49,262 nt of DNA from an uncultured Alphaproteobacteria bacterium (GTDB lineage Bacteria; Pseudomonadota; Alphaproteobacteria; CAIYWZ01). Below, one piece after another: positions 12,762 to 34,670 of this stretch (positions are counted from its first letter, which is position 1; every line of letters begins with the position of its first letter). The translations under genes were made by a program, and so were the position numbers. The stretch is taken from positions 1-49,262 of the forward strand of contig CAIYWZ010000124.1 in the NCBI GenBank assembly GCA_903930075.1, in the 5' to 3' direction. The notes beneath the pieces are model-generated. The model was not told where the DNA came from, did not search any database, and worked only from the letters and a program-made list of their open reading frames with translations.

Positions 12762-15700
12762 CCACTTGTTGAGCCACAGGTATTACACTTGAGGCAGGTT
12801 CCATTACGCACCAACGTGAAATTTCCACATTCAGAACAGGCATCTCCTTGATAACCTTGAAGCTTTGCCTGGGCTACTTTTTGGGCTGTGGAAGGTTCTT
12901 GCGGCGAAGATGAATTAGACACAACAAAGAAATTCCCCCTTGTAAATCCAGAACTTCCTGCAAAAGTCACAACTTTATCTACGGTTTCGTCTTGCTTAAT
13001 GATCGGGCTTCCGATGCTTCCTGGGTCCATTTCCTCAGGAATGCTGTGGGCCAAATCCGTGCGTCCAAGGTAAGAGATTGCCAGTTCCCTAAAGATATAA
13101 TCAATCACAGAAGTTGCCATCTTAATTGTTGAGTTTCCTTCCACGCGTCCTGATGGATCAAAACGTGTAAAAGTGAAGGCTTCGACAAATTCTTCCAAAG
13201 GAACGCCATATTGGAGACCAATTGAAATGGCCATGGCAAAATTGCTCATCAAACTTCTAAAAGCCGCGCCTTCTTTGTGCATGCTGATAAAGAGCTCGCC
13301 CAAATTTCCATTGGGATATTCACCTGTGGTGATATAAACCTTATGACCGCCAACGGAGGCTTTTTGAGTGTATCCTCTGCGGCGTTCTGGCAGGCGGTGA
13401 CGTTTTCCGGAAACAACACGTTCAATGACGCGTTCAACAATTTTTTCGCTAATTTGGACAACTTGTTCGGCTTTGGGCAAATCATCAAAGTCCTCATCAT
13501 CCACCAAAGATCCGCTTAAAGGCTGGGAAAGTTTTGAACCATCTCTGTAAAGGGCATTGGATTTAAGCCCCAATTTCCAAGAAAGCATATAGGCTTCTTT
13601 ACAATCATTGATGGATGCATGTGTTGGCATATTGATCGTTTTGGAAATTGCGCCTGAAACAAATGGCTGAACAGCTGCCATCATTTCAATATGACTTTGA
13701 GCCGAGAGATACCTCTTTCCTTTTTTACCACAGGGGCTTGCACAATCAAATACACTGTAGTATTTCGCATCTAAATGAGGCGAGCCTTCAATTGTCATTG
13801 TCCCACAGCAATATTCATTGGCGGCATCAATATCTGCTTTGCCGAACCCTAAGGTTTCTAAAAGATTAAACGCTGGATCATTAAATTCTTGAGGAGAGAT
13901 TTTTAAAGTTTTGGATAAAAATTCTTCTCCCAAAGACCATTTATTAAAGACGAACCGGATATCAAAAGCACTGGCAAGTGAGTTTTTGAGCATATCAATC
14001 TCTTTTTCACCAAAGCCTTTTTCCCTTAAGGATTTGTAGTTGATGACAGAAGAATTTTCAAGACTTCCATGTCCTAAAATATATTGTTCAATATCTTTGA
14101 TTTGTGAATCGGTATATCCAAGACTTAAAAGACCTTGGGGAACCATGCGGTTGATAATGCGGAAATATCCCCCCCCTGCAAGTTTTTTGAACTTCACCAA
14201 GGCAAAGTCGGGTTCAATCCCTGTTGTGTCGCAATCCATCACAAGACCAATTGTTCCTGTGGGGGCAATCACGGTTGTTTGTGCATTTCTGAATCCATGT
14301 TTGCTTCCAAGTTCCAAAGCGCTATCCCAAGATTTTTTTGCTTCATCAATCAGATTCACATTGTGAGAAAGATCATTGGCATTTAAGGGAACAGGTAGAA
14401 TTGTTAACTTATCATATCCACCTTTTTTACCATAGGCTGCATTTTTATGGTTTGAAATGACCCTGAGCATATCCTTTGCGTTGACTTTGTATCCGGGGAA
14501 TGTGCCTAATTCTTTGGCCATGAGCGCAGAAACCGCGTAAGATGTACCCGTCATGATCGCAGCCAATGCTCCTGCAATGGCTCTACCCTCTTTACTATCA
14601 TAGGGAATACCGCAGGACATTAAAACTCCCCCAAGGTTTGCATATCCAAGGCCAAGGGTGCGGTAATCATAAGATCTTTGCGCAATTTCTTTTGAAGGGA
14701 ATTGGGCCATGGTCACAGAAATTTCAAGGGTCATTGTCCACAAAGAAATCGCATGTTTATAAGCTTCAATATCAAAATTGAGTTCTAACGGATTATCCCC
14801 TTCTTTTTTGAAGGTATAAAGGTTTAAAGACGCAAGGTTACAGGCAGTATCATCCAAGAACATGTATTCAGAACATGGATTTGATCCATTAATACGGCCG
14901 CTTTGGGGGCAGGTATGCCATTCATTGATTGTTGTATCGAATTGAATCCCTGGATCAGCGCACTCCCAGGCGGCGTAGCTGATTTTATCCCAAAGATCTT
15001 TTGCTTTAAGTGTTCTATGGATTTCCCCATCGGTTCTGCGTATGAGATTCCAATTTTTGTCTTCTAAAACGGCATTTAAGAAATGATTATCGACTCTAAC
15101 ACTGTTGTTCGAATTTTGTCCAGAAACAGTAAGGTATGCTTCGCTATCCCAATCGGTGGTCAAGACTTTAAAGTCGATTTCTTTGGCGCCTTGGGATGTC
15201 ATTTGAATAACGCGTCCAATATAGTTTTCAGGAACCATTTCTGATTTTGCCTTGCGGATTGCTTTTTTCAGGGCCATATTTATTTTGGGGTTACAGGCAT
15301 CTTCCAATGTGCCATCAAATTCGTGAATCGTATTAAAAATTTCTGACAAATTGCGCTTTACAATTTTGGATCCGGTGACCAAGCTTGCAACTTTTTGTTC
15401 CTCTTCAACTTTCCAGTTTACAAATTCTTCAATATCGGGATGATCCACATCTAAAATCACCATTTTTGCAGCTCTTCTGGTGGTTCCTCCCGATTTAATC
15501 GCCCCTGCAGAGCGGTCTCCAATTTTGAGGAAACTCATCAAGCCTGAGGAACGACCACCGCCCGAAAGAGATTCGCCATTCCCACGGATTTTTGAAAAGT
15601 TTGATCCTGTACCTGATCCATATTTAAAAAGACGTGCTTCCCGGACCCAAAGATCCATAATGCCTCCATCATTGACCAAATCATCGCCGACGCTTTGAAT

Positions 15701-16300
15701 AAAACAAGCATGGGGCTGGGGATGTTCATAGGAAGAGGTTGAACTTGTGAGTTTTCCGGTTTTAAAATCAACATAATAGTGACCTTGGGAATGTCCTTCA
15801 ATACCGTAAGCCCAATGAAGACCTGTATTGAACCATTGTGGTGAATTTGGCGCGGCCATTTGGTGAATGAGCATATAGCGCATTTCATCAAAATAAGCCA
15901 AGGCATCTTCTTCGCCATCAAAGTATCCGCCTTTCCAACCCCAATAGGTCCAGGCTCCTGCCATACGATCAAAAACTTGTGTAGCAGATTGTTCACTTGA
16001 GGTTCTTTGGTTTTCAGGAAGTGATGCCAAAATATCCTCATCTGGGACTTGGCGTTGGAGCCAAACGGGGATTCCTTCTTCCTCAACTTTTTTTAAAGCC
16101 AAAGGAACACCGGCTTTGCGAAAATATTTTTGCGCAATAATGTCACAGGCAACGGAGGACCAGCTTGCGGGGACTTCTATATTTTCTAACCTAAAAACGA
16201 TGGATCCATCGGGATTTTTAATTTCTGAAGTTGCTCTTTGGAAGACAATATTTGAGTAAGGGGAACTATTAGTGGTGGTAAAACGACGTTGAATTTTCAT
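12752..16300 (-). CDS. nrdJ: Class II (adenosylcobalamin-dependent) ribonucleotide reductase
   Basis: Long alpha-type NrdJ with the conserved blocks NPCSEY, PTGTIG and SKTINMP, and a Cys-rich C-terminal tail ([28 protein letters not shown]). I chose the start at ATG 16300, preceded by AAAGAGG. Confidence 0.9.
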
Positions 16301-16545
16301 AAAAAACCTCTTTATATATTTAATTGATGTGTTTAATTTCAGGGTGACTTCTCTATGAATTAAACTACTCTTGTCCTCAAATTCTTTCAATAAAAATATT
16401 TACTTTTTTTTAAAAAAAAAGGTTGATTTTTTGAAGCACCCGGAAAATCTATTGCATTTAAATAAATTAAAATTAGGGGTTTCTTAACTTTTTTCTTTTA
16501 TATTCATAGTATTAACGAATTAAACGTAAAAGGAGTCGCTTCAAA

Positions 16546-17721
16546 ATGAAACTGCAAAATTCAAGTATTTTTCAAAATAAATATTTTTTCTGGGGAAGTA
16601 TAGGGATCATTTTGATCTTGGTGTGTAAAATCGGATCCATGTTTTTTGCAAGTAAGCCTATTCCAAAAATTTATACTGTGCCTTTGGCAGAAGTTGCGCA
16701 TGTGATTAAAAAAACAGTTCCTTATGAAATTACCGCCCCTGGAACGTTTATGACCATGCAACAAATTAGTATTTATAACCGTGTTGATGGGGAAATTTTG
16801 ACAATGCCCTTTAAAGAAGGAGATATTGTTAAAGAAGGGGATATTCTTTATACGCTCAATGTTGCGGATCAGGAAGCAAAACTTGCTCAGGTTCAAGGAT
16901 CTTTAGAAAAAGATATGGCACTTTTGGAAGATGCGAAAAAAGAATATGACCGCAATGCAAAACTTTTTAAACAAGGATTTGTGTCTGCGTCCCAATTAGA
17001 TCTATTGAAAAGTAATAGAGACAGTTTAGAAGCCAGTATTAAGACCGATCAAGGTAATATTGATTATATGAAAATTCAAATTGGGTATGCGACAATTCGA
17101 AGTCCAATTACGGGACGTATTGGTTTTACCAAAGTCAATATCGGAACCCTTGTCAAAGCTTCATCTACGGCGCCAATTACAACGATTATGAAACTTGATC
17201 CTATGGATTTTATATTCTCATTATCAGAAAAATATCTTGATTTTTTAAATAAAACACCGCTGGATAAATTTAAAATTGCTTTAACAGATGAAAATTATGT
17301 GGAAAAAACCGCAATTGGTAAGTTAATCGCCCTTGATAACAGTATCAGTACAGCAACGGGGTCTCTCCAGGTGAAAGCCAGATTTGATAATAAAAATTTT
17401 GAATTTTGGCCTGGGCAATATTTAAATATTAAAATCGTTTTGGAAGAGAAAAAAGATGCTTTGATTGTTCCCGCAAGGGCGGTGCAAAGTGGTCCTAAAG
17501 GTCCTTATGTTTTTGTGTGTAAAGAAGAAGATCAGACATTTTCCATGCGTGACGTTAAAGTTGGGATCACTGCAGAAACTTGGGCACTGGTTGAAACTGG
17601 TTTGAAAGAGGGGGATTTGGTCCTTGTTTCTGGGCAAAATGCCTTTAAAAATGGAACAAAAGCTGCAAAGCTTGAAAAACAAGATACGAATCTTTTGATT
17701 GAAGCAAAGGACAAAAAATAA
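16546..17721 (+). CDS. RND efflux periplasmic adaptor (membrane fusion protein, MdtA/AcrA-like)
   Basis: N-terminal TM anchor, a coiled-coil hairpin region, the lipoyl-like motif IRSPITGRIG and a beta-barrel C-terminus. Its stop overlaps the start of the next gene (TAATG). Confidence 0.85.
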   Translation: MKLQNSSIFQNKYFFWGSIGIILILVCKIGSMFFASKPIPKIYTVPLAEVAHVIKKTVPYEITAPGTFMTMQQISIYNRVDGEILTMPFKEGDIVKEGDILYTLNVADQEAKLAQVQGSLEKDMALLEDAKKEYDRNAKLFKQGFVSASQLDLLKSNRDSLEASIKTDQGNIDYMKIQIGYATIRSPITGRIGFTKVNIGTLVKASSTAPITTIMKLDPMDFIFSLSEKYLDFLNKTPLDKFKIALTDENYVEKTAIGKLIALDNSISTATGSLQVKARFDNKNFEFWPGQYLNIKIVLEEKKDALIVPARAVQSGPKGPYVFVCKEEDQTFSMRDVKVGITAETWALVETGLKEGDLVLVSGQNAFKNGTKAAKLEKQDTNLLIEAKDKK

Positions 17722-20700
17722 TGAACTTTTCGAGCATTTTTATTTTCCGTCCCATTATGACGATTTTATTGATGGTCGCTTTTATTTTTGCAGGATGTAT
17801 TGGATATTCTCTTTTACCAATCAACTCACTTCCAAGAATTGATTTTCCAACGATTCAAGTCACTGTTTTGTTTCCTGGGACGTCAGCAGAAACCATGGCG
17901 CGAACGGTTGCTCTACCTTTGGAACATATGTTTTCCTCAATTGATGGAGTTGATACGATGAACTCGACCAGCAGTCAGGGGAAAACGCAAATCACACTCC
18001 AATTTGGTTTAAATCGCAATATTGACGCGGCGGCCCAAGATGTGGGGTCCGCAATTTCTGGAGCTCAAAAAAACCTCCCCGTGGGACTTCCAAATCCACC
18101 AACTTATGCAAAAATTAATCCGGCAGAAACGCCGGTTCTTTACATTTCGGTCAACTCGGAAAGTTTGAAAAACGCGCAAGTTGATATGTATGCGCGTAAT
18201 TTTATCGCGGACCGTATTTCTATGTTGCCAGGAGTGGCACAGGTGGACAACCTTGGAAGTCAGAAATATGCGGTGCGTATTTATGCAAATCCTCAAATTT
18301 TAGCCATGCGGGGCTTGACTTTAACGGACGTTTCAAATGCGGTTGCACATGCAAATATATTGGCTCCGTCGGGGTTGATTTATGGTTCTTTTCAAGCAGG
18401 TGTGGTCAATCCCAACAGCAGCCTTCAAACAGCCGCTGATTTTGAAAATGTGATCGTGAATGAAGTGGGCGGTGTGCCGCTACGGCTTAAAGATGTGGCC
18501 ACAGTTAAAGACAGCATTGAAGATGATCGAAGGGCTGCCTGGTATAATAAAACGCCTTCGGTTCTTTTGGCTGTGAGTCGCCAGCCAGGTGCAAATACGG
18601 TTGAAGTGATTGATAGTGTTCATAATCTCCTTCCCCAAATTAGGGCTCAGCTTCCTCAAACCCTGAATGTGGATGTGTTGGCGGACAGGTCTGAAGCGGT
18701 GCGTGATGCTCTGCGGGATGTGAAATACACCTTTGTGCTGACGATGATTTTGGTCATTGGGGTAATTTATATGTTTTTGAACAATATGAGAGCAACGTTT
18801 ATTCCAAGCATCACACTTCCCATTGCCATTATTGGGAGCTTTGCTTTCATGTATATTTTTGGATATAGCTTGAATAATTTAACACTTTTGGCTCTGACTC
18901 TGGCCGTTGGATATATCGTAGATGATGCGATTGTAGTTGTTGAAAATATTAGTCATCATGTTGAACATGGTATGCCCTCTGTGGACGCTGCGGTTCAAGG
19001 AAGCAGTGAAATTTCTTTTACTGTTCTTTCCATGACGCTTTCATTGGGCGCCGTTTTTATTCCCATTATTTTCATGCAAGGCGTTGTGGGGAGACTCTTT
19101 CACGAGTTTGCAATCACGATTACCGTTGTGATCATGATTTCATGTTTTATTTCACTGACCCTCACGCCCATGATGGCAAGATTTTTACTTGTTGCAGATC
19201 AGCAAGCGGATAAAAAACCCTCAAGATTTGAAATTCTTTATAATCAGGTAGAAGCGTTGTATAAATTATCTTTAAATTGGGTGATGAAGCGCCAACGGGA
19301 AACGCTGTTTTTTTTCACCTTTCTTTTTTGTTTCAATATTTTTCTTTTTATGCAGGTGAGCAAAGGATTTTTCCCGACAGAAGATACCGGATTTATTTTT
19401 GGGTTTTATGAATCCACAGCTGAAACTTCCTTTGAATCTATGAAAAGAACGGCTGAAAAAGTTTCTGATATTGTGTCTAAAGACCCGGATGTTCTTAATT
19501 TCAACGTTTCTCTTGGAGGAGGGAGTTTGAGCAATGCAGGCCGTGTTTTTATTGCGCTCAAACCTGTTGATCAAAGGCAAAAAAATATTCAAACAAAGAT
19601 AGGAGATTTTAGAAAAGCCTTCACTCAGATTGCCGAAGTTCAAATGTTTTTACAACCCGTCGTGAACTTAAATCTTGGGGGATTGATCAGTAAAAGTCAA
19701 TATCAGTATACTTTGCAGGGAACAGACTTGAAAGAGTTATATAAATACACACAAAATTTTGAGCAAGAACTTAAAAAAATCCCTGGATTTTTAGATGTGA
19801 CAACGGATTTACAGCTGAACGTTATGAATGCAAATGTGAAGATCAATCGTGACCGAGCATCTATGCTGGGTATTGCGATTTCAGACATTACAAATGTTTT
19901 AGGAAGCGCGTTTGGAGATCTTCAAATTTCAACAATTTATAATGATCAAGACAGTTATAAAGTCATTTTAGATGCCTCAAAAAATCAATCACGTGTTTTG
20001 GGAGATCTTTCCCATCTTTTTGTAAAAACAAAAAAAGGAGACCTCGTCAGATTGGATACCGTTGCCAAGTTTGAATTTGGGAATTCGGCTTTGACTGTCA
20101 ATCATTTTAATGAAGTCCCTTGTACAACAGTTTCTTTTAATTTACGCCCCGATATGAGTTTGGGAGAGGCTGTGGCCAAGCTTGATGAGGCAGAAATTAA
20201 TCTCAAAAGACCCCAAAGTATAACGGGCGCATTTCAAGGAACAACGCAGGTCTTTAAAGCCATGCAAACACAGGCACTATGGCTGATTTTAGCGGCAGTT
20301 TTGACAATATATCTGATTTTAGGGATGCTTTATGAAAGTTATATCCACCCCTTGACGATTCTCTCCAGTCTTCCAACAGCTGGAATTGGAGCACTTATGG
20401 CATTGATCTTCACGGGGATGAATCTTGATGTGATCAGTTTAATTGGATTTATTATGCTCATTGGAATTGTGAAAAAGAATGCAATCATGATGATTGACTA
20501 TGCCCTTGTGGAAGAACGTCAACATGGAAAATCGCCTGAAGAAGCCATTGTTGAAGCGGCGTTTCGAAGGTTTAGACCGATTATGATGACAACGCTTGCC
20601 GCTATTGTGGGAATTCTTCCCATCACTTTTGGTCTGGGGGCAGGGGCGGAACTCCGCCAGCCCTTAGGCGTTGCGGTTGCGGGGGGGCTTATGGTTTCTC

Positions 20701-20792
20701 AAGTTTTGACTCTTTATATTACGCCGGTGATTTATATTTATTTGGATAAATTATCGAAAAGGGTTAAGTCTCTGGCTTTACAAACGGTATAA
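17721..20792 (+). CDS. RND permease paralogue 1 (MdtB/MdtC/AcrB family)
   Basis: 1023 aa, 12-TM RND architecture. TM4 GYIVDDAIVVVENI, TM10 GIVKKNAIMMIDYA, TM11 RRFRPIMMTT. Confidence 0.92.
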   Translation: MNFSSIFIFRPIMTILLMVAFIFAGCIGYSLLPINSLPRIDFPTIQVTVLFPGTSAETMARTVALPLEHMFSSIDGVDTMNSTSSQGKTQITLQFGLNRNIDAAAQDVGSAISGAQKNLPVGLPNPPTYAKINPAETPVLYISVNSESLKNAQVDMYARNFIADRISMLPGVAQVDNLGSQKYAVRIYANPQILAMRGLTLTDVSNAVAHANILAPSGLIYGSFQAGVVNPNSSLQTAADFENVIVNEVGGVPLRLKDVATVKDSIEDDRRAAWYNKTPSVLLAVSRQPGANTVEVIDSVHNLLPQIRAQLPQTLNVDVLADRSEAVRDALRDVKYTFVLTMILVIGVIYMFLNNMRATFIPSITLPIAIIGSFAFMYIFGYSLNNLTLLALTLAVGYIVDDAIVVVENISHHVEHGMPSVDAAVQGSSEISFTVLSMTLSLGAVFIPIIFMQGVVGRLFHEFAITITVVIMISCFISLTLTPMMARFLLVADQQADKKPSRFEILYNQVEALYKLSLNWVMKRQRETLFFFTFLFCFNIFLFMQVSKGFFPTEDTGFIFGFYESTAETSFESMKRTAEKVSDIVSKDPDVLNFNVSLGGGSLSNAGRVFIALKPVDQRQKNIQTKIGDFRKAFTQIAEVQMFLQPVVNLNLGGLISKSQYQYTLQGTDLKELYKYTQNFEQELKKIPGFLDVTTDLQLNVMNANVKINRDRASMLGIAISDITNVLGSAFGDLQISTIYNDQDSYKVILDASKNQSRVLGDLSHLFVKTKKGDLVRLDTVAKFEFGNSALTVNHFNEVPCTTVSFNLRPDMSLGEAVAKLDEAEINLKRPQSITGAFQGTTQVFKAMQTQALWLILAAVLTIYLILGMLYESYIHPLTILSSLPTAGIGALMALIFTGMNLDVISLIGFIMLIGIVKKNAIMMIDYALVEERQHGKSPEEAIVEAAFRRFRPIMMTTLAAIVGILPITFGLGAGAELRQPLGVAVAGGLMVSQVLTLYITPVIYIYLDKLSKRVKSLALQTV

Positions 20793-20794
20793 TT

Positions 20795-23700
20795 ATGGGA
20801 TTTTCGAGCATTTTTATCCTCCGGCCGATTATGACGACGCTTTTAATGCTCTCGTTTATTTTTGCTGGTGCTCTTGGTTATGTATTTCTGCCCATTAATT
20901 CGCTTCCAAGAATTGATTTTCCAACGATTCAGGTCTCTGCCAGTTTTCCGGGAACTTCCGCTGAAACAATGTCGCGGACTGTGGCTTTGCCTTTAGAGAG
21001 GGCTTTTTCTTCCATTGCAGGGGTTGATACGATGAATTCTGTCAGCAGCCAGGGAACAACGCAAATCACCTTGCAATTTGTGTTAGAAAGAGACGTTGAT
21101 GCCGCGGCTCAGGATGTTGAATCTGCCATTGCTGCAGCTCAAAAGAATCTCCCCACGGGCATGCCCACACCGCCTAGTTATAAAAAATTTAACCCTTCGG
21201 AAACCCCTGTGATTTTTGTCTCCGTGAATTCGGATACTCTGCCTTTATTTGAGATTGATAAATATTGTCAAACGTTTATTGGGGACCGTATTTCAATGCT
21301 TCCTGGAGTTGCACAGGTGGATATTATGGGAAGTCAAAAATATGCGGTGCGCATTTATGCAAATCCTCAAATTTTAGCCCTTCGGAATCTAACCCTGACG
21401 GATATATCTCATGCAATTTCGAGTGCAAATGTCCTTTCTCCCTCTGGCCTTCTCAATGGAGAATTGCAGGCATCTGTTGTGAATCCAAATAGTTCTTTAC
21501 AAACGGCCAAAGATTTCAAAGAAATTATTGTATCGCAGATCAATGGGGTTCCCTTAAAACTTAAAGATGTGGCCGATGTTCAAGATAGTGTGGAAAATGA
21601 TCGCACGGCGGCATGGGTTAATAAAAGACGTTCTATTACGCTTGCGGTGAGCCGTCAACCTGGTTCAAATACTGTGGAAGTGACGCAAAGTGTGCGGGAT
21701 ATGATTCCAAAATTACAGGAACAGTTACCCAAAACTCTCAATATTGATATTTTGGCAGATAGGGCTGAATCTGTACGTGATTCCCTGCGGGATATCAAAT
21801 ACACTTTTTTGCTTACAATGATTTTGGTTATTGGTGTTATTTTTATATTTTTACGCAGCATTTGGGCAACACTTATTCCTGTAATGACACTGCCAATCGC
21901 GATTATCGGAAGCTTTGCGTTCATGTATTATTTGGGATATAGCCTGAATAATTTGACGCTTCTGGCTTTAACACTTTCCATTGGCTATATTGTCGATGAT
22001 GCAATTGTTGTTCTTGAAAATATTAGCCACCATGTGGAAAATAAAATGAATCCTTTTGATGCGGCGATCAAGGGAAGCGCGGAGATCTCTTTTACCGTTA
22101 TTTCCATGACTTTATCCCTGGTTGCTGTCTTTATCCCCATTATTTTTATGCAAGGCATCGTTGGGCGATTATTTCATGAATTTTCAATTACAATTTCTAT
22201 TGTTATTTTGATGTCTTGCTTTATTTCCTTGACGTTGACTCCGATGATGGCGCGTTTTTTTCTCTCAACAGAGAAAGAACGTCCCTTTTCTTTTCTCGTC
22301 TTTTTTGAAAATTATTATAAAAAATTAGAAATATTCTATCATTCTTCTCTTTCATGGGTGATGAAACGGCAGCGTCAGACGCTATATTTTTTTGCTCTAC
22401 TTTTTTGTTTTAATATTTTTCTTTTTACTCAAGTGAATAAGGGATTTTTTCCAACAGAAGATACAGGCCTTATTTTTGGAACATTTGAAGCCACAGCGGA
22501 CACGTCTTTTGAATCCATGAAAAAAACTGCTGCAAAAATATATGATATTCTTGAAAAAGACAAGGACGTTCTGAATTATAATTTATCTATTGGTGGGAGT
22601 GCATTGAGCAATGCGGGCCGTGTTTTTATCAATCTTCAGCCCATAGGTAAACGCCATAAAAACATTGAAGAAAAACTGAAGGATTTAAGAAAAGCTTTTT
22701 TTGCTATTCCTGAACTGAGAGTTTTTTTACAGCCTGTGGCGAGTCTTCGTGTTGGGGGGCTTTCGAGCAAAAGCCAGTATCAATATACTTTTCAAGGGTC
22801 GGATTTAGATCCTTTATATGCTTATACACAATTATTTGAAAAAGAGCTTAAAAAAATCCCTGGATTTTTGGACGTGACAACGGATTTACAGCTCAATGTG
22901 TTGAATGCCAATATTACAATTGACCGCGACCGGGCATCTACTTTGGGCGTTCCAATAAAAAACATTACGAATATTTTGGGAAGCGCTTACGGAGATAGTC
23001 AAATTTCAACAATTTTTACAGACCAAGATAGTTATCAGGTGATTTTAGATGCGTCAAAAAATCAATCGCGTATATTGCAAGATATTTCAAATTTGTTTGT
23101 AAAAAACGATCAAGGAGGTCTTGTTCGTTTAGACAGCATTGCAAAATTTGAAAGGGGGAATTCATCCCTTACGGTGAATCATTTTAATGAGCTTCCTTCA
23201 ACCACGGTTTCTTTTAACTTGGATAAAGCTGTGAGTCTTGGGGAAGCTGTGAAAAAAATAGAAGATCTTGAAATTAACCTTAAAAGACCACAAACGATTA
23301 CCGGTGCATTTCAAGGAACAACTCAGGCGTTTAAAGCGATGCAGACTCAGGAACTGGCGCTTATCTTAGGGGCGATTGTGACAATTTATATTATTCTAGG
23401 GATGCTCTATGAAAGTTATGTTCACCCCTTGACGATTCTCTCCAGCCTTCCAACCGCTGGTATTGGCGCATTGCTCGCGCTCATGGTGACGGGGATGAAT
23501 TTTGATATCATTAGCTTGATTGGGTTGATCATGCTCATTGGAATTGTCAAGAAAAACGCCATTATGATGATTGATTATGCCCTCGTGGAGGAACGACTTC
23601 ATCATAAGTCCCCGGAAGATGCAATCATTGAAGCAGCTCACAGGCGGTTTCGCCCCATTATGATGACAACGTTTGCAGCCATCATGGGGATTCTTCCCAT

Positions 23701-23875
23701 TGCCCTTGGGCTCGGGGCAGGCGCGGAACTTCGTCAACCTTTAGGTGTTGCCGTTGCAGGGGGACTTATGGTTTCTCAAATTCTGACACTTTATATCACG
23801 CCAGTCATTTATATTTATCTAGATAAATTTTCTAGAAAAAAAGAGTATTTACAATATCAGGAGAAAGTCTCATGA
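20795..23875 (+). CDS. RND permease paralogue 2
   Basis: 1026 aa, colinear with paralogue 1 and carrying the same proton-relay motifs. Starts 2 nt after the stop of paralogue 1. Confidence 0.92.
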   Translation: MGFSSIFILRPIMTTLLMLSFIFAGALGYVFLPINSLPRIDFPTIQVSASFPGTSAETMSRTVALPLERAFSSIAGVDTMNSVSSQGTTQITLQFVLERDVDAAAQDVESAIAAAQKNLPTGMPTPPSYKKFNPSETPVIFVSVNSDTLPLFEIDKYCQTFIGDRISMLPGVAQVDIMGSQKYAVRIYANPQILALRNLTLTDISHAISSANVLSPSGLLNGELQASVVNPNSSLQTAKDFKEIIVSQINGVPLKLKDVADVQDSVENDRTAAWVNKRRSITLAVSRQPGSNTVEVTQSVRDMIPKLQEQLPKTLNIDILADRAESVRDSLRDIKYTFLLTMILVIGVIFIFLRSIWATLIPVMTLPIAIIGSFAFMYYLGYSLNNLTLLALTLSIGYIVDDAIVVLENISHHVENKMNPFDAAIKGSAEISFTVISMTLSLVAVFIPIIFMQGIVGRLFHEFSITISIVILMSCFISLTLTPMMARFFLSTEKERPFSFLVFFENYYKKLEIFYHSSLSWVMKRQRQTLYFFALLFCFNIFLFTQVNKGFFPTEDTGLIFGTFEATADTSFESMKKTAAKIYDILEKDKDVLNYNLSIGGSALSNAGRVFINLQPIGKRHKNIEEKLKDLRKAFFAIPELRVFLQPVASLRVGGLSSKSQYQYTFQGSDLDPLYAYTQLFEKELKKIPGFLDVTTDLQLNVLNANITIDRDRASTLGVPIKNITNILGSAYGDSQISTIFTDQDSYQVILDASKNQSRILQDISNLFVKNDQGGLVRLDSIAKFERGNSSLTVNHFNELPSTTVSFNLDKAVSLGEAVKKIEDLEINLKRPQTITGAFQGTTQAFKAMQTQELALILGAIVTIYIILGMLYESYVHPLTILSSLPTAGIGALLALMVTGMNFDIISLIGLIMLIGIVKKNAIMMIDYALVEERLHHKSPEDAIIEAAHRRFRPIMMTTFAAIMGILPIALGLGAGAELRQPLGVAVAGGLMVSQILTLYITPVIYIYLDKFSRKKEYLQYQEKVS

Positions 23876-26800
23876 ACTTTTCAAGCATTTTCATCTTTCG
23901 TCCAATTATGACAACTTTATTGATGATTTCGTTTCTTTTTGCAGGGGGCCTTGGTTATTATCTTTTGCCCGTCAATTCTCTTCCTAAAATGGATTTCCCA
24001 ACGATTCAAGTGACGGTGAGTTTTCCTGGGACTTCTGCTCAGACGATGTCGCGAACAATTGCGCTTCCTTTAGAACGCTCGTTTGCGTCCATTGCAGGGA
24101 TTGAGTCAATGAATTCCATGAGCAGCCAGGGAACAACCACAATAACCCTTCAGTTTGTGCTGGATCGAAATATTGATGCGGCTGCGCAAGATGTGGGTTC
24201 GGCAATTGCGGCGGCGAAAAAAAAGCTTCCTGCGGGACTCCCAAATCCTCCGACATATCAAAAAATTAATCCTTCGGAAACGCCTATCATTTATCTGGCA
24301 CTGAGCTCTTCGACTTTGCTGCTTTCACAAATCGATATGTATGCCCAAACGTTTATTGGGGACAGAATCTCGATGCTGCCAGGGGTGGCTCAGGTGGATG
24401 TTCAGGGGAGTCAAAAATACGCCGTGCGGATTTATGCAAATCCCCAATTGCTTTCCATGCGACAATTGGCTTTAACGGATCTGTCAACGGCTGTGAGCAA
24501 TGCCAATATTTTGTCTCCTGCTGGGCTTCTGAATGGAAAAATTCAAGCAGAAGTTTTAAATCCCAATAGTGGCCTTTTAAATGCGCAGGATTTTAAAAAG
24601 GTGATTATTGCGCAAAAAAACGGCATGCCCCTGCGCCTTGAAGATGTGGCCGAGGTTGAAGACAGTATTGAAAATGATCGAACGATTGCCTGGTATAATA
24701 AAACACCAGCAATTATCGTGGCCATTAGCCGTCAGCCAGGGGCCAATACCATCGAAGTTTCAGACCAAATACATGAGATTTTACCTAAATTAAAAGCCCA
24801 GCTTCCTCAAACTCTAAATATTGATGTTCTTTCGGATCAGTCTCAATCCATCCGTGAGTCGATGCATGATGTGAAATATACATTTTTCCTGACGATGATT
24901 TTGGTTATTCTTGTGATTTTTGCATTTTTGCGTAATGTGCGTGCAACCTTGATTCCGAGCATTACGTTGCCCATTGCCATTATTGGCACGTTTGCGTTTA
25001 TGTATTATTTAAATTATAGCCTGAATAATTTGACGCTTTTGGCTTTGACCCTTGCCATTGGCTATATTGTGGATGATGCGATTGTGGTTCTTGAAAATAT
25101 TATGCATAAAATTGAAAATAAAATGTCCCCTTTAGATGCGGCGATTCAAGGGAGCAGCGAAATCTCATTTACGGTTTTGTCCATGACGTTGTCTTTGGTT
25201 GCCGTCTTTATTCCGATTATTTTCATGGAAGGAATCGTGGGGAGGCTTTTCCATGAATTTGCAATGACGATTACAATTGTGATTTTGATTTCCTGTTTTA
25301 TTTCTTTAACGCTCACGCCCATGATGGGGCGTTTTTTGAAAGCGGCCAAGGAAGAAGAGAAAGAATCATATCTGGAAAGTTTATATAAAAAGCTAGAAAC
25401 CGCTTATAAAAAATCTCTTGAGTTTGTGATGAAAAGACAAACACAGACCCTTTATTTTTTTGTTGCGCTCTTTTGTTTCAACATTTTCCTCTTTAACGTT
25501 GTGCATAAAGGATTTTTTCCAACGGAAGATACAAGCCTGATTTCAGGAACGTTTGAAGCAACGGCAGAAACTTCATTTGAATCCATGAAAAAAACCTCGC
25601 ACAGGATTTTAGATTTGATCGAAAAAGACTCAGATGTCCTGAATTTTAATATTTCAATTGGGGGGACATCTTTACCCAATCAGGGTAATATTGCCATTAC
25701 ATTAAAACCTTCAAATCAGAGAAGCAAAACAATCGATGAAAAAATACAAGATTTTAGAAAAAGTTTCTTGAGCGTTTCTGAAGCTCAAGTCTTTTTGCAG
25801 CCTGTTGCAAACCTTACCCTTGGGGGACTTGCGAGTAAAAGCCAATATCAATACACTCTTCAAGGATCGAATTTACAAGAATTATATGAATACACACAAA
25901 ATGTTGAACAAGCTTTAAAGAAAACCCCAGGATTCATAGACGTGACAACGGATTTGGAACTTAATGTCTTGAATGCCAATATCAACATCGACCGCGACCA
26001 TGCATCTCTTCTTTGTGTGCCGATGATCAATATTACAAATACCCTCGGAAGTGCGTTTGGGGATCTTCAAATCTCAACCATTTTTACCGACCATGACAGT
26101 TATAAAGTTATTTTGAATACCTCCAAAAACCAATCCCGTGACCCGCAAGACCTTTCAAAATTATTGGTAAAAAATACAAATGGTGATCTTGTGCGCTTAG
26201 ATGCATTTGCAAAGTTTGAACCTGGGAATTCAGTGCTTACGGTGAATCACTTTAATGAAATCCCCGCAACAACCGTTTCATTCAATTTAGATCAGGGAAC
26301 AAGCCTTGGGGAAGCCATTGAAAAAATTGAGAAGTTAGATGAGGGTGTTCCACGGCCCAAAAGCATAACTGCAGATTTTCAAGGGACAACGCAGGTTTTC
26401 AAAGCGATGCAGTCGGGGCAAATTTGGCTGATTTTAGCAGCTGTGCTTACGATTTATATGATTCTTGGTATGCTTTATGAAAGTTATATCCACCCTATCA
26501 CAATCCTTTCAAGTCTGCCCACGGCGGGTATTGGTGCTTTGCTTGCCTTGATTTTTACGGGGATGAATTTGGATGTGATCAGCTTGATTGGATTTATTAT
26601 GCTCATTGGAATTGTGAAGAAAAATGCGATTATGATGATCGATTATGCCCTTGTTGAAGAACGCACTCACAATAAAACGCCCGAAGTTGCCATCGTTGAA
26701 GCAGCTCATAGAAGGTTCCGCCCGATCATGATGACAACGTTTGCGGCGATCATGGGGATTCTTCCCATTACTTTTGGCCTTGGGGCAGGGGCAGAACTGC

Positions 26801-26928
26801 GGCAACCTCTGGGCGTTGCCGTTGCGGGCGGACTCCTTGTTTCTCAAGTTCTAACCCTTTATATTACGCCTGTGATTTATATTTATTTGGATAAATTATC
26901 GAAAAGGGTCAAGCACGCTTTTTCTTGA
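23872..26928 (+). CDS. RND permease paralogue 3
   Basis: 1018 aa, colinear with paralogues 1 and 2. ATGA start/stop overlap with paralogue 2. Same relay motifs. Confidence 0.92.
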   Translation: MNFSSIFIFRPIMTTLLMISFLFAGGLGYYLLPVNSLPKMDFPTIQVTVSFPGTSAQTMSRTIALPLERSFASIAGIESMNSMSSQGTTTITLQFVLDRNIDAAAQDVGSAIAAAKKKLPAGLPNPPTYQKINPSETPIIYLALSSSTLLLSQIDMYAQTFIGDRISMLPGVAQVDVQGSQKYAVRIYANPQLLSMRQLALTDLSTAVSNANILSPAGLLNGKIQAEVLNPNSGLLNAQDFKKVIIAQKNGMPLRLEDVAEVEDSIENDRTIAWYNKTPAIIVAISRQPGANTIEVSDQIHEILPKLKAQLPQTLNIDVLSDQSQSIRESMHDVKYTFFLTMILVILVIFAFLRNVRATLIPSITLPIAIIGTFAFMYYLNYSLNNLTLLALTLAIGYIVDDAIVVLENIMHKIENKMSPLDAAIQGSSEISFTVLSMTLSLVAVFIPIIFMEGIVGRLFHEFAMTITIVILISCFISLTLTPMMGRFLKAAKEEEKESYLESLYKKLETAYKKSLEFVMKRQTQTLYFFVALFCFNIFLFNVVHKGFFPTEDTSLISGTFEATAETSFESMKKTSHRILDLIEKDSDVLNFNISIGGTSLPNQGNIAITLKPSNQRSKTIDEKIQDFRKSFLSVSEAQVFLQPVANLTLGGLASKSQYQYTLQGSNLQELYEYTQNVEQALKKTPGFIDVTTDLELNVLNANINIDRDHASLLCVPMINITNTLGSAFGDLQISTIFTDHDSYKVILNTSKNQSRDPQDLSKLLVKNTNGDLVRLDAFAKFEPGNSVLTVNHFNEIPATTVSFNLDQGTSLGEAIEKIEKLDEGVPRPKSITADFQGTTQVFKAMQSGQIWLILAAVLTIYMILGMLYESYIHPITILSSLPTAGIGALLALIFTGMNLDVISLIGFIMLIGIVKKNAIMMIDYALVEERTHNKTPEVAIVEAAHRRFRPIMMTTFAAIMGILPITFGLGAGAELRQPLGVAVAGGLLVSQVLTLYITPVIYIYLDKLSKRVKHAFS

Positions 26929-27856
26929 TCTGTTTCTTTAGGGGAGCTTTTTTTGAAATAATTGATTTTTTCTCTGGTTTTTTCGAATTTTTTATCAACT
27001 CGCGAATCATAAACGAAAGTTCATTTTGCTCGCTGAGCAAAGATTGTTCTGGTACGGCAACATCAAGTTTTTTAAACGTTCCGTTAATGAGTTTTGTCAT
27101 CTGGGCATCACGATAATGACGCGTTAATCCCCCCAGAATAACCGCGACAATACGTTTATCCCCCCGTTTTGCGGACGCAACGAGGTTGAATCCAGACGCA
27201 TTCGTAAACCCTGTTTTACAGCAGTCCACCCCTTCGACTTTGCCTAAAAGAGTGTTATGATTCCTATAACTTTTACCCTTGTAATAAAAAGAAGTGGTTG
27301 CAAAATATTGGAAATACGAGTCGTAATGATCGATCAAATGACGGGCCAGGATTGACATATCTTTAGCAGTTGTAATTTGCTCGGGATGGGGCAACCCAGA
27401 TGCATTTTTAAAGACCGTATTGCGCATGCCAATGGCTCTTGCTTTTTGTGTCATCATTTTTGCAAATTTTTCTTCAGATCCCCCTAAATACTCACCAACG
27501 GCCGCAGCAACATCGTTTGCTGAATGGGTAATTAGAGCAAGGATTGCATCAATAACAGAAATTTTACTGCCAGGTTTAAGATGCAGTTTTGTAGGAAGTT
27601 GATTGGCTGCATATTTAGAAACTGTAATCATATCATTAAGGTTTGTTTTTTCCAAGTTGAGGGCATCAAAGAGCATTTTTAAGGTAAACATTTTTGTCAG
27701 TGACGCAGGATGCCCGATGTAATGGGAATTATGGTCAAAAAGAACCTCCCCGGAATCTGCATCAATGACAATCGCGCTAAATTTCTTTTTTGTTGCCATC
27801 AAATCTGTTTGAAAGAAAAGAACGCCTAAGAAAAGTAAATGGAGAATAAATCTCAT
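26909..27856 (-). CDS. D-alanyl-D-alanine carboxypeptidase (PBP5/6, S11 family)
   Basis: Signal peptide, SxxK (PASLTKMFT), SxN (HSANDVA) and KTG (CKTGFT). Lys-rich C-terminal anchor. Confidence 0.85.
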   Translation of the reverse strand: MRFILHLLFLGVLFFQTDLMATKKKFSAIVIDADSGEVLFDHNSHYIGHPASLTKMFTLKMLFDALNLEKTNLNDMITVSKYAANQLPTKLHLKPGSKISVIDAILALITHSANDVAAAVGEYLGGSEEKFAKMMTQKARAIGMRNTVFKNASGLPHPEQITTAKDMSILARHLIDHYDSYFQYFATTSFYYKGKSYRNHNTLLGKVEGVDCCKTGFTNASGFNLVASAKRGDKRIVAVILGGLTRHYRDAQMTKLINGTFKKLDVAVPEQSLLSEQNELSFMIRELIKNSKKPEKKSIISKKAPLKKQIKKKRA

Positions 27857-28062
27857 TTACTTTTTTCTCGGTAGTAATTGAGCAGATAAACTCTCAAAGC
27901 ACTGGCAAGCCCTGTTTTTCTTTGGCCGTCGATTTGGCCTAAAAACTGAGGAAGGTTGAGTTTCTTTTCTTTAAGTATAGCGTCCACAGCATCCCAAAAC
28001 TCTTGTTCCAAGGCAATACTGGTTCTGTGTCCTGCAATTGATATAGATTTTTTAATCATCAT
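27853..28062 (-). CDS. Ribbon-helix-helix (RHH_4) domain protein
   Basis: SIAGHRTSIALEQEFWDAVDAI...LASALRVYLLNYY matches the alphaproteobacterial RHH_4 pattern. It has 4-nt overlaps with both neighbours. Confidence 0.65.
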   Translation of the reverse strand: MMIKKSISIAGHRTSIALEQEFWDAVDAILKEKKLNLPQFLGQIDGQRKTGLASALRVYLLNYYREKSK

Positions 28063-30721: not shown

Positions 30722-32152
30722 TCACGGTTCACGTAATTTTTGAAACATTTTCGTAACTTCTTGGGCAACAGTTTTTTCAACCAAGCTTGGTAAATACGCA
30801 TTGACCCAGTCTTTTAAAAGAGGCTGAATCAAATCGTAAATGAATGCCTGAAGCTGTGAGTTCTGATTTCCCATATCCAAAGATGGAATAGAAGGAGTCG
30901 GAATGATCGTCTCAGGTGTTTCTTTTTCTCCCGTGAGGGGAGAATTTTCTGGTATAACCTGCGCTATATTGTGAAGCGAAATGCTTGAAGCATTAAGAAG
31001 CGACGTTAAATTTTTTAAAGAGGATGGAGTGGTCAATGATTCTCCTGTTTCTTCTTTAGGTGTTTCTTTTTCTAGAACAGCCGTTTGTGGACTAATGTGC
31101 GTTGTATTCTGGGTAGAAATATTTGAAACCGCAGAAATTGACATTATATTTCCAAAAACGGGTGGAACCGCTGAGAATACTCTGGCTCCTTCTTTGGTAA
31201 ATCCATAAAGCGTTTCTTTAGTTGTTCCTGTTTCTGTAATAGGTGCCGTCTGTGAATGAACACGTGTTGCATCCCGCATAGAAATGTTTGGAACAGTCAG
31301 AAGTGACGTTACATTTCCAAAAACTGATGGAGCAGCGCAGAATTCTTCTATTCCTTCTTTGACTATTACTTTTTTTGCAATAAGTTCAGGATTTTCTGAA
31401 ACAACAGTCTGTGAACTCATGCGCGTTACGTTCTGGGTAGAAATACTTGGAGCAGGAGAAATTGATTTTACATTTCCAAAAACTGGTGGAGCCGCTGAGA
31501 ATTCTCCTGTTCCTTCTTTGGTCACACCATAGAGTGTTTCTTTTTCTGCAACAGGAGATGCATTTTCTAGAACAACCGTCTGTGGATTGATGCGCGTTAC
31601 ATTTTGAACAGAAATACTTGGCGCAATAGGAAGTGGCGTTATGTTTTCAAAAACTGATGGAGCAGCGGAGAATTCGCCTGCTTCTTCTTTGGTAAAACCA
31701 TAGGTTGTTTCTTTGGTTGCTTCTTGTTCTGCAACAGGGGAGGAATTTTCTGAAATAACCGTCTCTGGGATAACAGGGGTTATATTTCGAATGGGAATGC
31801 CTGACGCAGTGGGAAGTGATGTTACATTTCCAAAAACGGGTGGATTAGATGAGAATTCCCCTGTTCCTTCTTTCGTAAAGCCATAAAGTGTTTTTTTGGT
31901 TCCAGAGAGAAAAGGTTTTACAGGTTCTTGCTCACTCTCTACAGAAGGCTTACCCTCATGTTCGGGAACCGTTGATTGAGGTGCTGCTGGAAGTGGCGTT
32001 GGAAAAGGAATCGTATCATATCCCTCTTTTTGTGAAAAAGTATTCACCTCTTTTTTTTCTTCCACTTTTGTTTCTGCAGATATAATGCGGCGGATGGATG
32101 CTAAAATTTCATCCATCGACATATCATCATCAACCTTTTCTGGATGCGACAT
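30722..32152 (-). CDS. popZ: PopZ/DUF2497-family polar organising protein homologue with expanded repeat linker
   Basis: N-terminal MDEILASIRRIISAE and C-terminal LIQPLLKDWVNAYLPSLVEKTVAQEVTKM match my recollection of Caulobacter PopZ termini (MEEILASIRRIISED, LLRPLLKEWLDQNLPRIVETKVEEEV). Adjacent to valS. Confidence 0.75.
   Translation of the reverse strand: MSHPEKVDDDMSMDEILASIRRIISAETKVEEKKEVNTFSQKEGYDTIPFPTPLPAAPQSTVPEHEGKPSVESEQEPVKPFLSGTKKTLYGFTKEGTGEFSSNPPVFGNVTSLPTASGIPIRNITPVIPETVISENSSPVAEQEATKETTYGFTKEEAGEFSAAPSVFENITPLPIAPSISVQNVTRINPQTVVLENASPVAEKETLYGVTKEGTGEFSAAPPVFGNVKSISPAPSISTQNVTRMSSQTVVSENPELIAKKVIVKEGIEEFCAAPSVFGNVTSLLTVPNISMRDATRVHSQTAPITETGTTKETLYGFTKEGARVFSAVPPVFGNIMSISAVSNISTQNTTHISPQTAVLEKETPKEETGESLTTPSSLKNLTSLLNASSISLHNIAQVIPENSPLTGEKETPETIIPTPSIPSLDMGNQNSQLQAFIYDLIQPLLKDWVNAYLPSLVEKTVAQEVTKMFQKLREP
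30920..31891 (-). repeat. About six tandem ~54-codon (~160-nt) degenerate coding repeats inside popZ
   Basis: Repeating unit TLYGFTKEGTGEFSAAPPVFGNVTSL..APSIS.QNVTR..PQTVV.EN, seen at about residues 88-411. The antisense ORFs in the track repeat as well. Confidence 0.85.
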
Positions 32153-32600: not shown

Positions 32601-33965
32601 TTACAACATCAAGGACTCTTTGATATGAATTGCTTCTAAAAAATCTTCATCGTGAGACACAACAATCATGGCACCTGGATAAACGATAAGAATTTCAATA
32701 ATATGTTTTTTGGTTTCAAGATCTAAATTATTGGTAATTTCGTCTAAAATCAGAAGTTTTGGCGTTTTTGAGGCAATCAGAGCCAAAGAAAGCCTTGCTT
32801 TCTCTCCGCCTGAGAGGTTTTGAACCTTTGTCATCACTTCTTCATTGCTGCGAAATAAAAAATCATTCAGATGTTTTCGCAAATCCACATGAGACCAGCT
32901 TGGTACGCATTCTTCTAAATTTTCAAGAACTGTTTTAAGTGGATTTAATGTTGAATAATGCTGATCAAGAAATCCGATATCATAAGCGTTAATAACGTTC
33001 CAATCTCCCGTTATTTTTACAGATTTGTCGCCTAAAATCGCCTTGAGAAATGTGGATTTTCCCGATCCATTCTTTCCTTTAATCGCAATACGCTGCCTTG
33101 AAGAACAAGAAAAATGGATATCTTTGAGTAGATTCTCATCATATCCTGCGCTGCCATTGGTCACGCAAACCAGCATTTTTTCTCCCATATTTTGGGAAGG
33201 GATCACAAATTTGGGTGTAATAATTTCAGGCAACCTAAAATTTTGCAATGTTTCATCAATTTTATTTTTCAAGATATTGACCTCACCACGCTTTTTCCCA
33301 GAGGTTGCAGAACCTTTTTCCTTCATGGCGCCTTTAAGCTTGCGATCATTTTCGTCTTTATTGGCTTTTTTACTCGAGGATGCCCGTTTTTGTTCAAACT
33401 CAAGGGCGGCTCTTGCTTTTTTCTGAGCTTTTGAGAGCAATTCCAATTGAGCAATTTGAGAAGTTCTGCAAGATTCGAATTCGCGCATATAATCATCATA
33501 ATTTCCGGAAAAAATTTCTATTTTCCCTTGATCAATATGCCAAAGTTTAGAGATAGATTTGCGCAATAACTGCGTATCATGTGACGCCACAATTAAGGTT
33601 CCCTTAAACCTATCCAAAACCTTAAAAAGAGCGCTACGATTTTTGACATCGAGATGATTTGTGGGCTCATCGAGCAATAAAACAGAAGGATCGCTTGCCA
33701 GTGCTTTGGTTAAGGCCTTTTGAAAACGTTCGCCACCACTGCAGTTCCCGGCGTCTTCTACAATTTGAGGAACACTTCCAAAGGCTATATTTTGATCCAA
33801 CAGAAGTTTTTCAAGAATTTTTAAAAGGCTTGATTTTCCAGATCCATTGCGCCCAATAATGCTAATTTTTTCCCCATAAAAAAACTCTGATGAGAAATTC
33901 TCGAAGCAGGTTTTTTGAGGAAATGAGAGAGAAATATTTTGAATAGAAAAAATACGATACGACAT
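32601..33965 (-). CDS. ABC-F-type ATPase (two NBDs, no TM domain), short form
   Basis: Walker A GRNGSGKS and GKNGSGKS, signatures SGGERF and LSGGEKARL, Walker B LLLDEPTNHLD and LILDEITNNLD. A Lys/Arg-rich interdomain linker. Confidence 0.75.
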   Translation of the reverse strand: MSYRIFSIQNISLSFPQKTCFENFSSEFFYGEKISIIGRNGSGKSSLLKILEKLLLDQNIAFGSVPQIVEDAGNCSGGERFQKALTKALASDPSVLLLDEPTNHLDVKNRSALFKVLDRFKGTLIVASHDTQLLRKSISKLWHIDQGKIEIFSGNYDDYMREFESCRTSQIAQLELLSKAQKKARAALEFEQKRASSSKKANKDENDRKLKGAMKEKGSATSGKKRGEVNILKNKIDETLQNFRLPEIITPKFVIPSQNMGEKMLVCVTNGSAGYDENLLKDIHFSCSSRQRIAIKGKNGSGKSTFLKAILGDKSVKITGDWNVINAYDIGFLDQHYSTLNPLKTVLENLEECVPSWSHVDLRKHLNDFLFRSNEEVMTKVQNLSGGEKARLSLALIASKTPKLLILDEITNNLDLETKKHIIEILIVYPGAMIVVSHDEDFLEAIHIKESLML

Positions 33966-34104
33966 AAAATAACTCCTTAAAAAAATGATAATTTCAATAT
34001 TTTAAAAAAGTTATTTCTTCATGTCGCATAGACTCCTGTTTGTTTAATTTCAAGATTAAATTTATCAAATTTTTCTTAAAAGTCAAGAATATTTTTGTTG
34101 TGAG

Positions 34105-34560: not shown

Positions 34561-34670
34561 TAATTGTGTTTTCCTTGTAATAAGTTGATATCCAAATGAA
34601 CTCTCGCACAGATTTCATGAAAAAGTCAATAAAATAAAATAAATTATTTCGCCTTTTTGGAGAATGATGA

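Follow-up and report, generated by a model that had tools for sequence, protein, structure and literature searches.

Gram-negative bacteria owe their intrinsic multidrug efflux mainly to RND (resistance-nodulation-division) pumps, which are trimers cycling through three states. To our knowledge, pumps of the MdtB2C type are the only ones studied that are not homotrimers, and all their examples stem from one ancient duplication. Which complexes are formed if a bacterium encodes three different permeases of this kind behind a single adaptor gene? This question is raised by a stretch of 49,262 nucleotides from an uncultured alphaproteobacterium (contig CAIYWZ010000124.1 of GenBank assembly GCA_903930075.1; the whole stretch is called the window in the following), in which the gene of a periplasmic adaptor (membrane fusion protein, MFP) is followed by three tandem permease genes, here named RND1, RND2 and RND3. 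The locus is a predicted Mdt-cluster (HAE-1 'clade B') RND efflux operon of a low-GC alphaproteobacterium. It is a lineage-specific three-permease form of the familiar Mdt-type operon, relatives of which are known with one or two copies. It poses the questions of how the protomers of a homotrimer, once duplicated, are distributed over mixed and separate complexes, whether a trimer of three different protomers can function, and how the copies partition the substrate range. The answer favored here, to which we give an even chance of being correct, is a triple permease operon with mixed trimers of flexible composition.

Layout of the operon

The operon and its borders comprise the following features:

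16391..16545, + strand: intergenic region between the adaptor gene and the gene of a class II ribonucleotide reductase (RNR), which is divergent on the other side; presumed operon promoter region
16546..17721, + strand: periplasmic adaptor (MFP), 391 amino acids, matching TIGR01730 RND_mfp
17721..20792, + strand: RND1, permease paralogue 1, 1023 amino acids, from the list of open reading frames and the Pfam ACR_tran match
20795..23875, + strand: RND2, permease paralogue 2, 1026 amino acids, from the same two sources
23872..26928, + strand: RND3, permease paralogue 3, 1018 amino acids, from the same two sources
26909..26928, no strand assigned: convergent overlap of 20 nucleotides between the 3' ends of RND3 and of an S11 D-Ala-D-Ala carboxypeptidase gene, from the coordinates of the open reading frames

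An initial annotation of this DNA had described one MFP gene, followed by three RND genes of ~1020 amino acids, joined by TAATG, a 2-nt gap and ATGA. Six-frame translation returns the open reading frames at the same coordinates, and all three junctions were confirmed on the sequence. At the junction of adaptor and RND1, gacaaaaaaTAATGaac, stop and start codon overlap by 1 nt (TAATG), at the junction of RND1 and RND2, ggtaTAAttATGgga, they are separated by 2 nt (TAA-tt-ATG), and RND2 and RND3 overlap by 4 nt (gtctcATGAac). With all genes on one strand and, at every junction, a stop codon that overlaps or adjoins the next start codon, the array has the geometry of a single operon.

The start of the adaptor gene is preceded by an AGGAG Shine-Dalgarno sequence at 16531-16535, an AAGGA motif resembling a Shine-Dalgarno sequence lies upstream of RND1, and GGAG is found 8 nt upstream of RND3. 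For RND2, the sequence upstream of the ATG contains no clear Shine-Dalgarno sequence, suggesting that this gene is probably translated by re-initiation after RND1. The public gene call for RND2 (P0002) begins at Met13 and has 1014 amino acids; the ATG at 20795 is supported as the start by the N-terminus M-x-FSSIFI-x-RPIMT, which is kept in the paralogues and in an orthologue from a sister locus (P0005; see below). The promoter of the array is presumed to lie within 16391-16545, where a scan for sigma-70-like promoters gave no match above threshold; promoter-like and terminator-like matches inside the genes are at about background, with the promoter hits at the level of shuffled sequence. The 20-nt overlap with the S11 gene, which is also present in the sister contig (L081, 13038-13057), is the predicted end of the operon and leaves no space for an intergenic terminator.

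It had also been stated that neither an outer-membrane factor nor a regulator is encoded here. This holds, as there is no OEP/TolC-family protein among the open reading frames of at least 150 amino acids in the window and no regulator gene adjoining the operon. Outer-membrane factors encoded at an unlinked site are normal for this cluster, as is the case for TolC in E. coli.

Family of the adaptor and the permeases

The adaptor matches TIGR01730 RND_mfp with 244 bits (cutoff 94.9) and carries a single N-terminal hydrophobic segment (residues 13-39). Among the NCBIfam models it is closest in kind to MdtA/MuxA, the equivalog cutoff of which (391 bits) is not reached by its score of 234 bits. RND1, RND2 and RND3 all match Pfam PF00873 ACR_tran over model positions 2-1020 of 1021 with 978-992 bits (cutoff 28; E ~1e-294 to 1e-298). 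Their top NCBIfam models are RND_permease_2, MdtB/MuxB and MdtC with 1030-1140 bits, all under the curated cutoffs: for the MdtB/MuxB equivalog NF007798 the three proteins score 1049-1063 bits vs a cutoff of 1584 and for the MdtC equivalog NF007905 they score 1030-1032 bits vs 1774. The best match among solved structures is E. coli MdtB (9lyq) with 900 bits, compared to at most 448 bits for pumps of the AcrB/MexB/CmeB type; RND1 aligns to 9lyq over residues 4-1017 with E = 2e-269.

The hydropathy profile shows the layout of transmembrane (TM) segment TM1, a large loop, TM2-7, a second large loop and TM8-12, with hydrophobic clusters at residues ~1-37, 331-491, 525-549 and 847-1008 and hydrophilic stretches at 38-330 and 550-846; the helices are not individually resolved in this profile. 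The three proteins are collinear with AcrB and MdtB in the alignment and have the twelve-TM topology of the HAE-1 type with two large periplasmic loops, one after TM1 and one after TM7.

Integrity and age of the three copies

The proton-relay residues had been reported as retained in all three copies, within the motifs VDDAIVV, VKKNAI and RRFRPIMMTT. Alignment with AcrB, MdtB and MdtC agrees with this, and equivalents of AcrB D407, D408, K940, N941, R971 and T978 are present in each protein, i.e., D401/D402, K919, K920 and K917, and R950, R951 and R948 (for RND1, RND2 and RND3, respectively), together with the asparagine and the threonine. Similarly, the count of 47 identical positions in the first 60 residues of paralogues 1 and 3 is exact, and the same count is obtained for all three pairs. 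Over the full length every pair is 72-73% identical in protein and 71% in nucleotide sequence, and where two paralogues have the same residue, they use the same codon in only 53-56% of the cases.

Estimated by the method of Nei and Gojobori, the synonymous divergence (dS) between the paralogues is 1.45-1.57 and thus saturated, and the ratio of non-synonymous to synonymous divergence (dN/dS) is 0.13-0.15 (0.05-0.07 for the orthologue pairs described below). Saturated dS together with these low ratios shows that each copy has been retained for a long time, and all three genes are shown by these analyses to be intact, full-length and under purifying selection. The view that they are old paralogues, taken initially from their many synonymous differences, is thereby borne out with a dS of ~1.5. 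RND1 and RND3 are 91% identical in the TM8-12 block and have their C-terminal tail in common. A recent gene conversion between these two genes was considered and rejected, since the dS of TM8-12 (1.29) equals that of the other pairs.

A sister locus and the origin of the triplication

A search with RND1 in a collection of 5.8 billion proteins returned few close relatives, namely the window's own three proteins, P0005 and P0004 with 70-71% identity and P0006 with 63%; the identity of others is at most 52%. P0005 and P0004 are encoded on one 78-kb ENA contig, L081, which is syntenic with the window and has the gene order class II RNR (divergent), adaptor, RND, RND, convergent S11 peptidase, ribbon-helix-helix (RHH) protein, valyl-tRNA synthetase (ValRS) and DUF2497. 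Only two permeases follow the adaptor there, the adaptor itself being 86% identical to that of the window. The identity is 87% between RND2 and P0005 and 89% between RND3 and P0004, with dS of ~1.1-1.2 in both orthologue pairs, and RND1 has 70-71% identity to either. The neighbor-joining tree has the topology ((RND1,(RND2,P0005)),(RND3,P0004)),P0006, in which the two orthologue pairs and the clade as a whole have a bootstrap support of 100 and the grouping of RND1 with RND2 one of 80-85. The tree shows that the permease was duplicated twice in tandem within the lineage of the window, and from the position of the orthologue pairs it follows that both duplications are older than the split between the window and L081 and that RND1 was lost in the sister lineage.

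The junction of adaptor and first permease in L081 resembles the adaptor-RND1 junction upstream of the ATG and RND2 downstream of it, in agreement with a clean deletion whose ends lie in the first codons, which are nearly identical in the two genes. A chimeric RND1/RND2 gene formed in L081 by unequal crossover, which was prompted by a blastn match extending from the adaptor into the first permease, was ruled out, as P0005 is RND2-like from its first variable residues and the end of the deletion lies within the first few shared codons. No orthologue of RND1 from the sample of L081 was found in the protein database, which is absence of evidence only, and L081 has some broken genes. In this contig ValRS is split into open reading frames of 73, 615 and possibly 144 amino acids (14185-16782), either by frameshift errors of the assembly or by pseudogenisation, which calls for caution regarding the quality of the contig.

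The single-copy outgroup P0006 is encoded at another locus (L082), where one adaptor gene is paired with one permease gene, and RND1, RND2 and RND3 are each 62-65% identical to this protein, i.e., their divergence is symmetric. The metagenome assembly of P0006 also contains a contig (L171) with the block of thioredoxin, DUF2497, ValRS, RHH and S11 genes and no RND genes, the ValRS being 77% identical. The next relative, P0008 (52%; L167), is likewise part of a single MFP-RND pair. Tree and loci together therefore give a series from a single copy to three copies in the common ancestor of the window and L081 and to two copies in L081. A 426-amino-acid open reading frame downstream of the permease in L082 was considered as an outer-membrane factor and rejected, as it has no OEP match.

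These data also bear on two further explanations of the array. As the window derives from metagenome assemblies, a mis-joined or expanded repeat might have produced the three genes. However, their nucleotide difference of ~29% is too large for a repeat-induced mis-assembly, the contig of a second public (ENA) assembly holds an identical array (13,841/13,841 bases), and the diverged L081 has the junction of RND2 and RND3 as well as both flanks in common with the window. An assembly artefact is thus excluded for practical purposes by the second assembly and by the orthologous copies in the sister contig, and we regard it as next to impossible, in line with the initial statement that the array is no assembly duplication. 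Moreover, the copies might be redundant or decaying products of a transient amplification, one or two of them being dead or on the way to be lost, as could be suspected from the loss of one copy in the sister lineage and from the missing obvious Shine-Dalgarno sequence of RND2. Against this stand three intact frames of ~1020 codons with full-length family matches, dN/dS values of 0.13-0.15 at saturated dS, the intact relay residues and the retention of two copies in both lineages since a split at dS of ~1.1-1.2, so that decay is largely refuted and appears very improbable. Even taken together, a non-functional copy or an artefact would be a very slight probability at most.

Independence from MdtB and MdtC, and apparent rarity

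For the relation to known tandem permeases, a tree of 53 sequences was calculated, comprising both members of 14 two-permease loci, 15 single loci and E. coli MdtB, MdtC and AcrB. In the canonical two-permease loci the first genes group with MdtB (bootstrap 98) and the second genes with MdtC (96). The joint clade of MdtB-type and MdtC-type proteins (bootstrap 99) leaves out RND1, RND2 and RND3, which are monophyletic (100) and cluster with single MFP-RND systems of Alphaproteobacteria, Nitrospirota, Acidobacteriota and others at 44-52% identity. According to this tree the three permeases are neither MdtB nor MdtC orthologues, and their triplication is independent of the MdtB/MdtC duplication, which is ancient (Gorecki and McEvoy 2020, PMC7015380). 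The dating of the duplications relative to MdtB/MdtC, proposed as a check in the initial annotation, thus gives a separate event within the lineage of the window. The comparison with MdtBC made there stands as an analogy, in that tandem permeases have a precedent, and a common duplication ancestry is not borne out. Single-permease, 'progenitor-like' relatives of the Mdt cluster occur in Alpha- and Betaproteobacteria (Gorecki and McEvoy 2020, PMC7015380).

In a survey of 920 genomes, 203 tandem permease repeats were found, all of them in this clade, and were assigned to one ancestral event (PMC10872679, 2024). However, in three of the two-permease loci of our tree the members are each other's closest relatives (bootstrap 98-100):

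L060, 6900-13090: adaptor-permease-permease, metagenome-assembled genome (MAG) of a member of the Melainabacteria
L168, 9001-16216: adaptor-permease-permease, plasmid pn1 of Nostoc sp. UHCC 0926
L008, 10001-16191: adaptor-permease-permease, MAG of a member of the Acidobacteriota

By their position in the tree these three loci each go back to a tandem duplication of their own, which lies outside the MdtB/MdtC split. Together with the triple array they show that tandem permease duplication arose more than once in the clade and that the single ancestral event (PMC10872679) is therefore not the whole story.

The frequency of MFP-RND-RND-RND loci was addressed by a census of the best 80 GTDB genome loci and the best 80 JGI metagenome loci. 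The scans behind it were saturated by the highly conserved KKNAIMMI pattern and gave relatives with no more than 49% identity, which were used for the census and not as orthologues. These relatives are 42-49% identical, many of the contigs are long enough to tell the number of permeases, and the census is a limited one and not genome-wide. Among these 160 loci there was no triple permease array, and ~14 were doubles. In a plasmid collection 718 records matched, and the three inspected (one from Nostoc, two from Azospirillum) each have two tandem permeases. A second triple array was accordingly found in none of the 163 related loci in all. Moreover, three tandem, consecutive or adjacent RND genes are described neither in the full-text literature searched nor in reviews of the field, in agreement with the initial annotation, which named no characterised case of this arrangement. 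The three-permease Mdt-type operon is thus apparently rare and uncharacterised. Another RND-family protein found in the database, P0007 (1461 amino acids), looks like one complete permease continued, by fusion or read-through, into the first 40% of another and may be a truncated fusion of the MdtB-MdtC type or an artefact of gene calling.

Divergence of the paralogues and composition of the trimers

The three permeases differ to a varying degree along their length. With domain limits taken as the AcrB boundaries mapped through the alignment, the identity between the paralogues is as follows:

PN2 and PC1: 59-64%
DN: 63-69%
TM2-7: 73-75%
TM8-12: 83-91%

Positions which are fixed within the orthologue pairs and differ between RND2 and RND3 make up 22% of the PN2 and PC1 columns vs 11% elsewhere (Fisher p = 7.5e-5). 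The comparison of substitutions in the periplasmic pocket, which had been proposed initially, points in the same direction: at positions aligned with the distal and proximal pockets of AcrB the paralogues differ at about one third of the sites, and the orthologues, at about two sites, are nearly fixed. PN2 and PC1 form the substrate pockets in pumps of the AcrB type, and their divergence is what a specialisation in substrate recognition predicts.

In the reading favored here, the four genes would be transcribed together, and translational coupling would keep their products at a roughly constant ratio. All three permeases would work with the same adaptor and with an outer-membrane channel whose gene lies elsewhere, as E. 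coli MdtABC does with TolC, and would use the proton gradient to expel amphiphilic or toxic compounds. As the least certain step, they would form mixed trimers of flexible make-up, beside possible homotrimers, and not one fixed 1:1:1 complex. The gain would be a wider or partitioned substrate range handled through one adaptor and one exit duct. Co-assembly is made probable by the identity of 72%, the obligatory co-expression and the very conserved TM domains. Heteromeric tandem RND permeases behind one adaptor are represented by MdtB2C, MuxBC and SmeJK (PMC4107485, PMC4229105, PMC10872679). A flexible composition is suggested by L081, where the system would work with two of the three copies.

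Several observations weigh against mixed trimers of this kind. MdtB homotrimers were reported to be active (bioRxiv 10.1101/2025.04.25.650598), and tandem RND genes therefore need not mean obligate heteromers; moreover, the MdtBC precedent stems from one different duplication event. We infer a single transcript and a common outer-membrane factor for a locus with no promoter match upstream and no outer-membrane factor gene in the window. Across the RND families, periplasmic domains generally diverge faster than TM domains, which is a caveat on the pattern of pocket divergence. Finally, the DN domain, which carries the inter-protomer loop, is only 63-69% identical and its loop tip differs between the paralogues, and this divergence could equally mean that the copies evolved mutual avoidance.

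The last point leads to the alternative that the operon encodes three separate homotrimeric pumps of differing substrate range, which dock to one adaptor and one outer-membrane channel. The complete relay in all three copies means that each could be autonomous, and their symmetric divergence from P0006 (62-65%) is unlike the division of labor reported for MdtB and MdtC (PMC4107485). The diverged DN loop, the loss of one copy with retention of the others in the sister lineage and the reported activity of MdtB homotrimers (bioRxiv 10.1101/2025.04.25.650598) fit separate pumps as well. However, with a coupled mRNA, 72% identity and TM8-12 domains that are 83-91% identical, mixing is unlikely to be avoided unless there is specific exclusion, of which no evidence was found in these proteins. 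Separate homotrimers are a possible solution that we consider rather doubtful; if true, the locus would be a case of ordinary paralogue subfunctionalisation.

The initial annotation had named, next to a combinatorial set of pumps, a defined 1:1:1 heterotrimer. Such a complex would contain exactly one copy of each permease in fixed cyclic order and have permanently non-equivalent protomers, for instance with three entry pockets leading to one exit duct, or, alternatively, protomers with fixed roles in the rotation cycle, and its origin would be separate from that of MdtB2C. In its favor, there are as many genes as protomers in an RND trimer, synthesis in near-equimolar amounts is suggested by the coupled junctions, all three copies are retained under strong constraint and the tips of the inter-protomer loops are paralogue-specific. 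This proposal is weakened by the syntenic sister locus, where an 86% identical adaptor is kept with the orthologues of RND2 and RND3 only and no orthologue of RND1 was found for it in the protein database; the lineage therefore does not depend on a complex in which all three parts are obligatory. Furthermore, P0005 does not retain the loop tip of its orthologue RND2, contrary to what a lock-and-key interface would demand. Both forms of the one-of-each heterotrimer, the one with three entry pockets and the one with fixed rotation roles, are for these reasons judged to be unlikely, and mixed trimers of flexible composition stay the favored answer.

Surroundings of the operon

On the other side of the convergent overlap, the genes of ValRS, a 69-amino-acid RHH_4 protein and the S11 carboxypeptidase overlap by 4 nt each on the minus strand (26909-28062). 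All relatives examined have kept this ValRS-RHH_4-S11 block, whether they carry an RND array or not. The RHH gene beside ValRS was considered as a regulator of the pump and rejected, as it is conserved in relatives without the array. The ValRS of the window has its best named matches in Rhodospirillales (56-59%), and the GC content of the window is ~39%. A two-piece (permuted) alphaproteobacterial transfer-messenger RNA lies at 1941-2300 on the minus strand (Rfam alpha_tmRNA, 206 bits; not reported by ARAGORN). These features assign the organism to the Alphaproteobacteria. The DUF2497 protein (30722-32152, minus strand) has 476 amino acids, compared to 179-207 in L081, L171 and L173, and only its C-terminal 44 residues match the family model.

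A block of ~5 kb between the thioredoxin/DUF2497 and amino-acid permease genes (32601-37535) is absent from L081. It encodes an ABC/AAA_21-type ATPase with PADLOC matches resembling mad3/AriA (E = 1e-51), an ATPase matching the candidate defence family PDC-S27 (E = 3e-86) and a transposase-like HTH_32 gene, and looks like an inserted defence islet. A further ATPase with AAA_14 and DUF4143 domains at 47544-48743 (minus strand) matches the PADLOC candidate family PDC-S01 (E = 5e-65). Genes for an ankyrin-repeat protein and two class-3 lipases are found at 5026-5784 (plus strand), 327-1553 (minus strand) and 42785-43732 (plus strand); in a low-GC contig, this combination suggests that the organism is possibly host-associated.

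Comparison with known systems

E. coli MdtABC has the orthologues MuxABC-OpmB in Pseudomonas aeruginosa, SmeIJK in Stenotrophomonas maltophilia, SdeCDE in Serratia and MdtUVW in Erwinia. The operon in the window resembles MdtABC in that its only adaptor gene stands ahead of several permease genes, all in one operon and closely spaced or overlapping (in E. coli K-12 mdtA and mdtB overlap, and mdtB and mdtC abut). Both belong to the same broad RND cluster, with MdtB as the best PDB match and MdtB and MdtC as the best equivalog matches, and neither operon contains the gene of an outer-membrane factor. Like MdtC, the permeases of the window have a short G-loop without aromatic residues. However, MdtABC has two permease genes and not three, MdtB and MdtC are 50% identical whereas the paralogues of the window are 72% identical, and neither an mdtD-like gene of the major facilitator superfamily nor a BaeSR-type regulator is found near the operon described here. 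Moreover, MdtB2C is a demonstrated heteromer, whereas mixed trimers are a prediction for the window.

Compared to the single-permease systems of the Mdt cluster, which have one permease, the permease of the window was duplicated twice in tandem. E. coli AcrA, which serves both AcrB and AcrD, is the model for separate homotrimers, as one adaptor is used by several paralogous permeases of differing substrates; acrD, however, is unlinked to acrAB and separately regulated, whereas the permeases of the window lie in one operon. Further systems for comparison are L060, L168 and L008, in which an adaptor is likewise combined with lineage-specific tandem permeases outside the MdtB/MdtC split, although with two copies each and none characterised. 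Set beside these systems, three equally diverged copies, a two-copy sister and single-copy outgroups provide an independent and younger system for studying how duplicated RND permeases are assembled.

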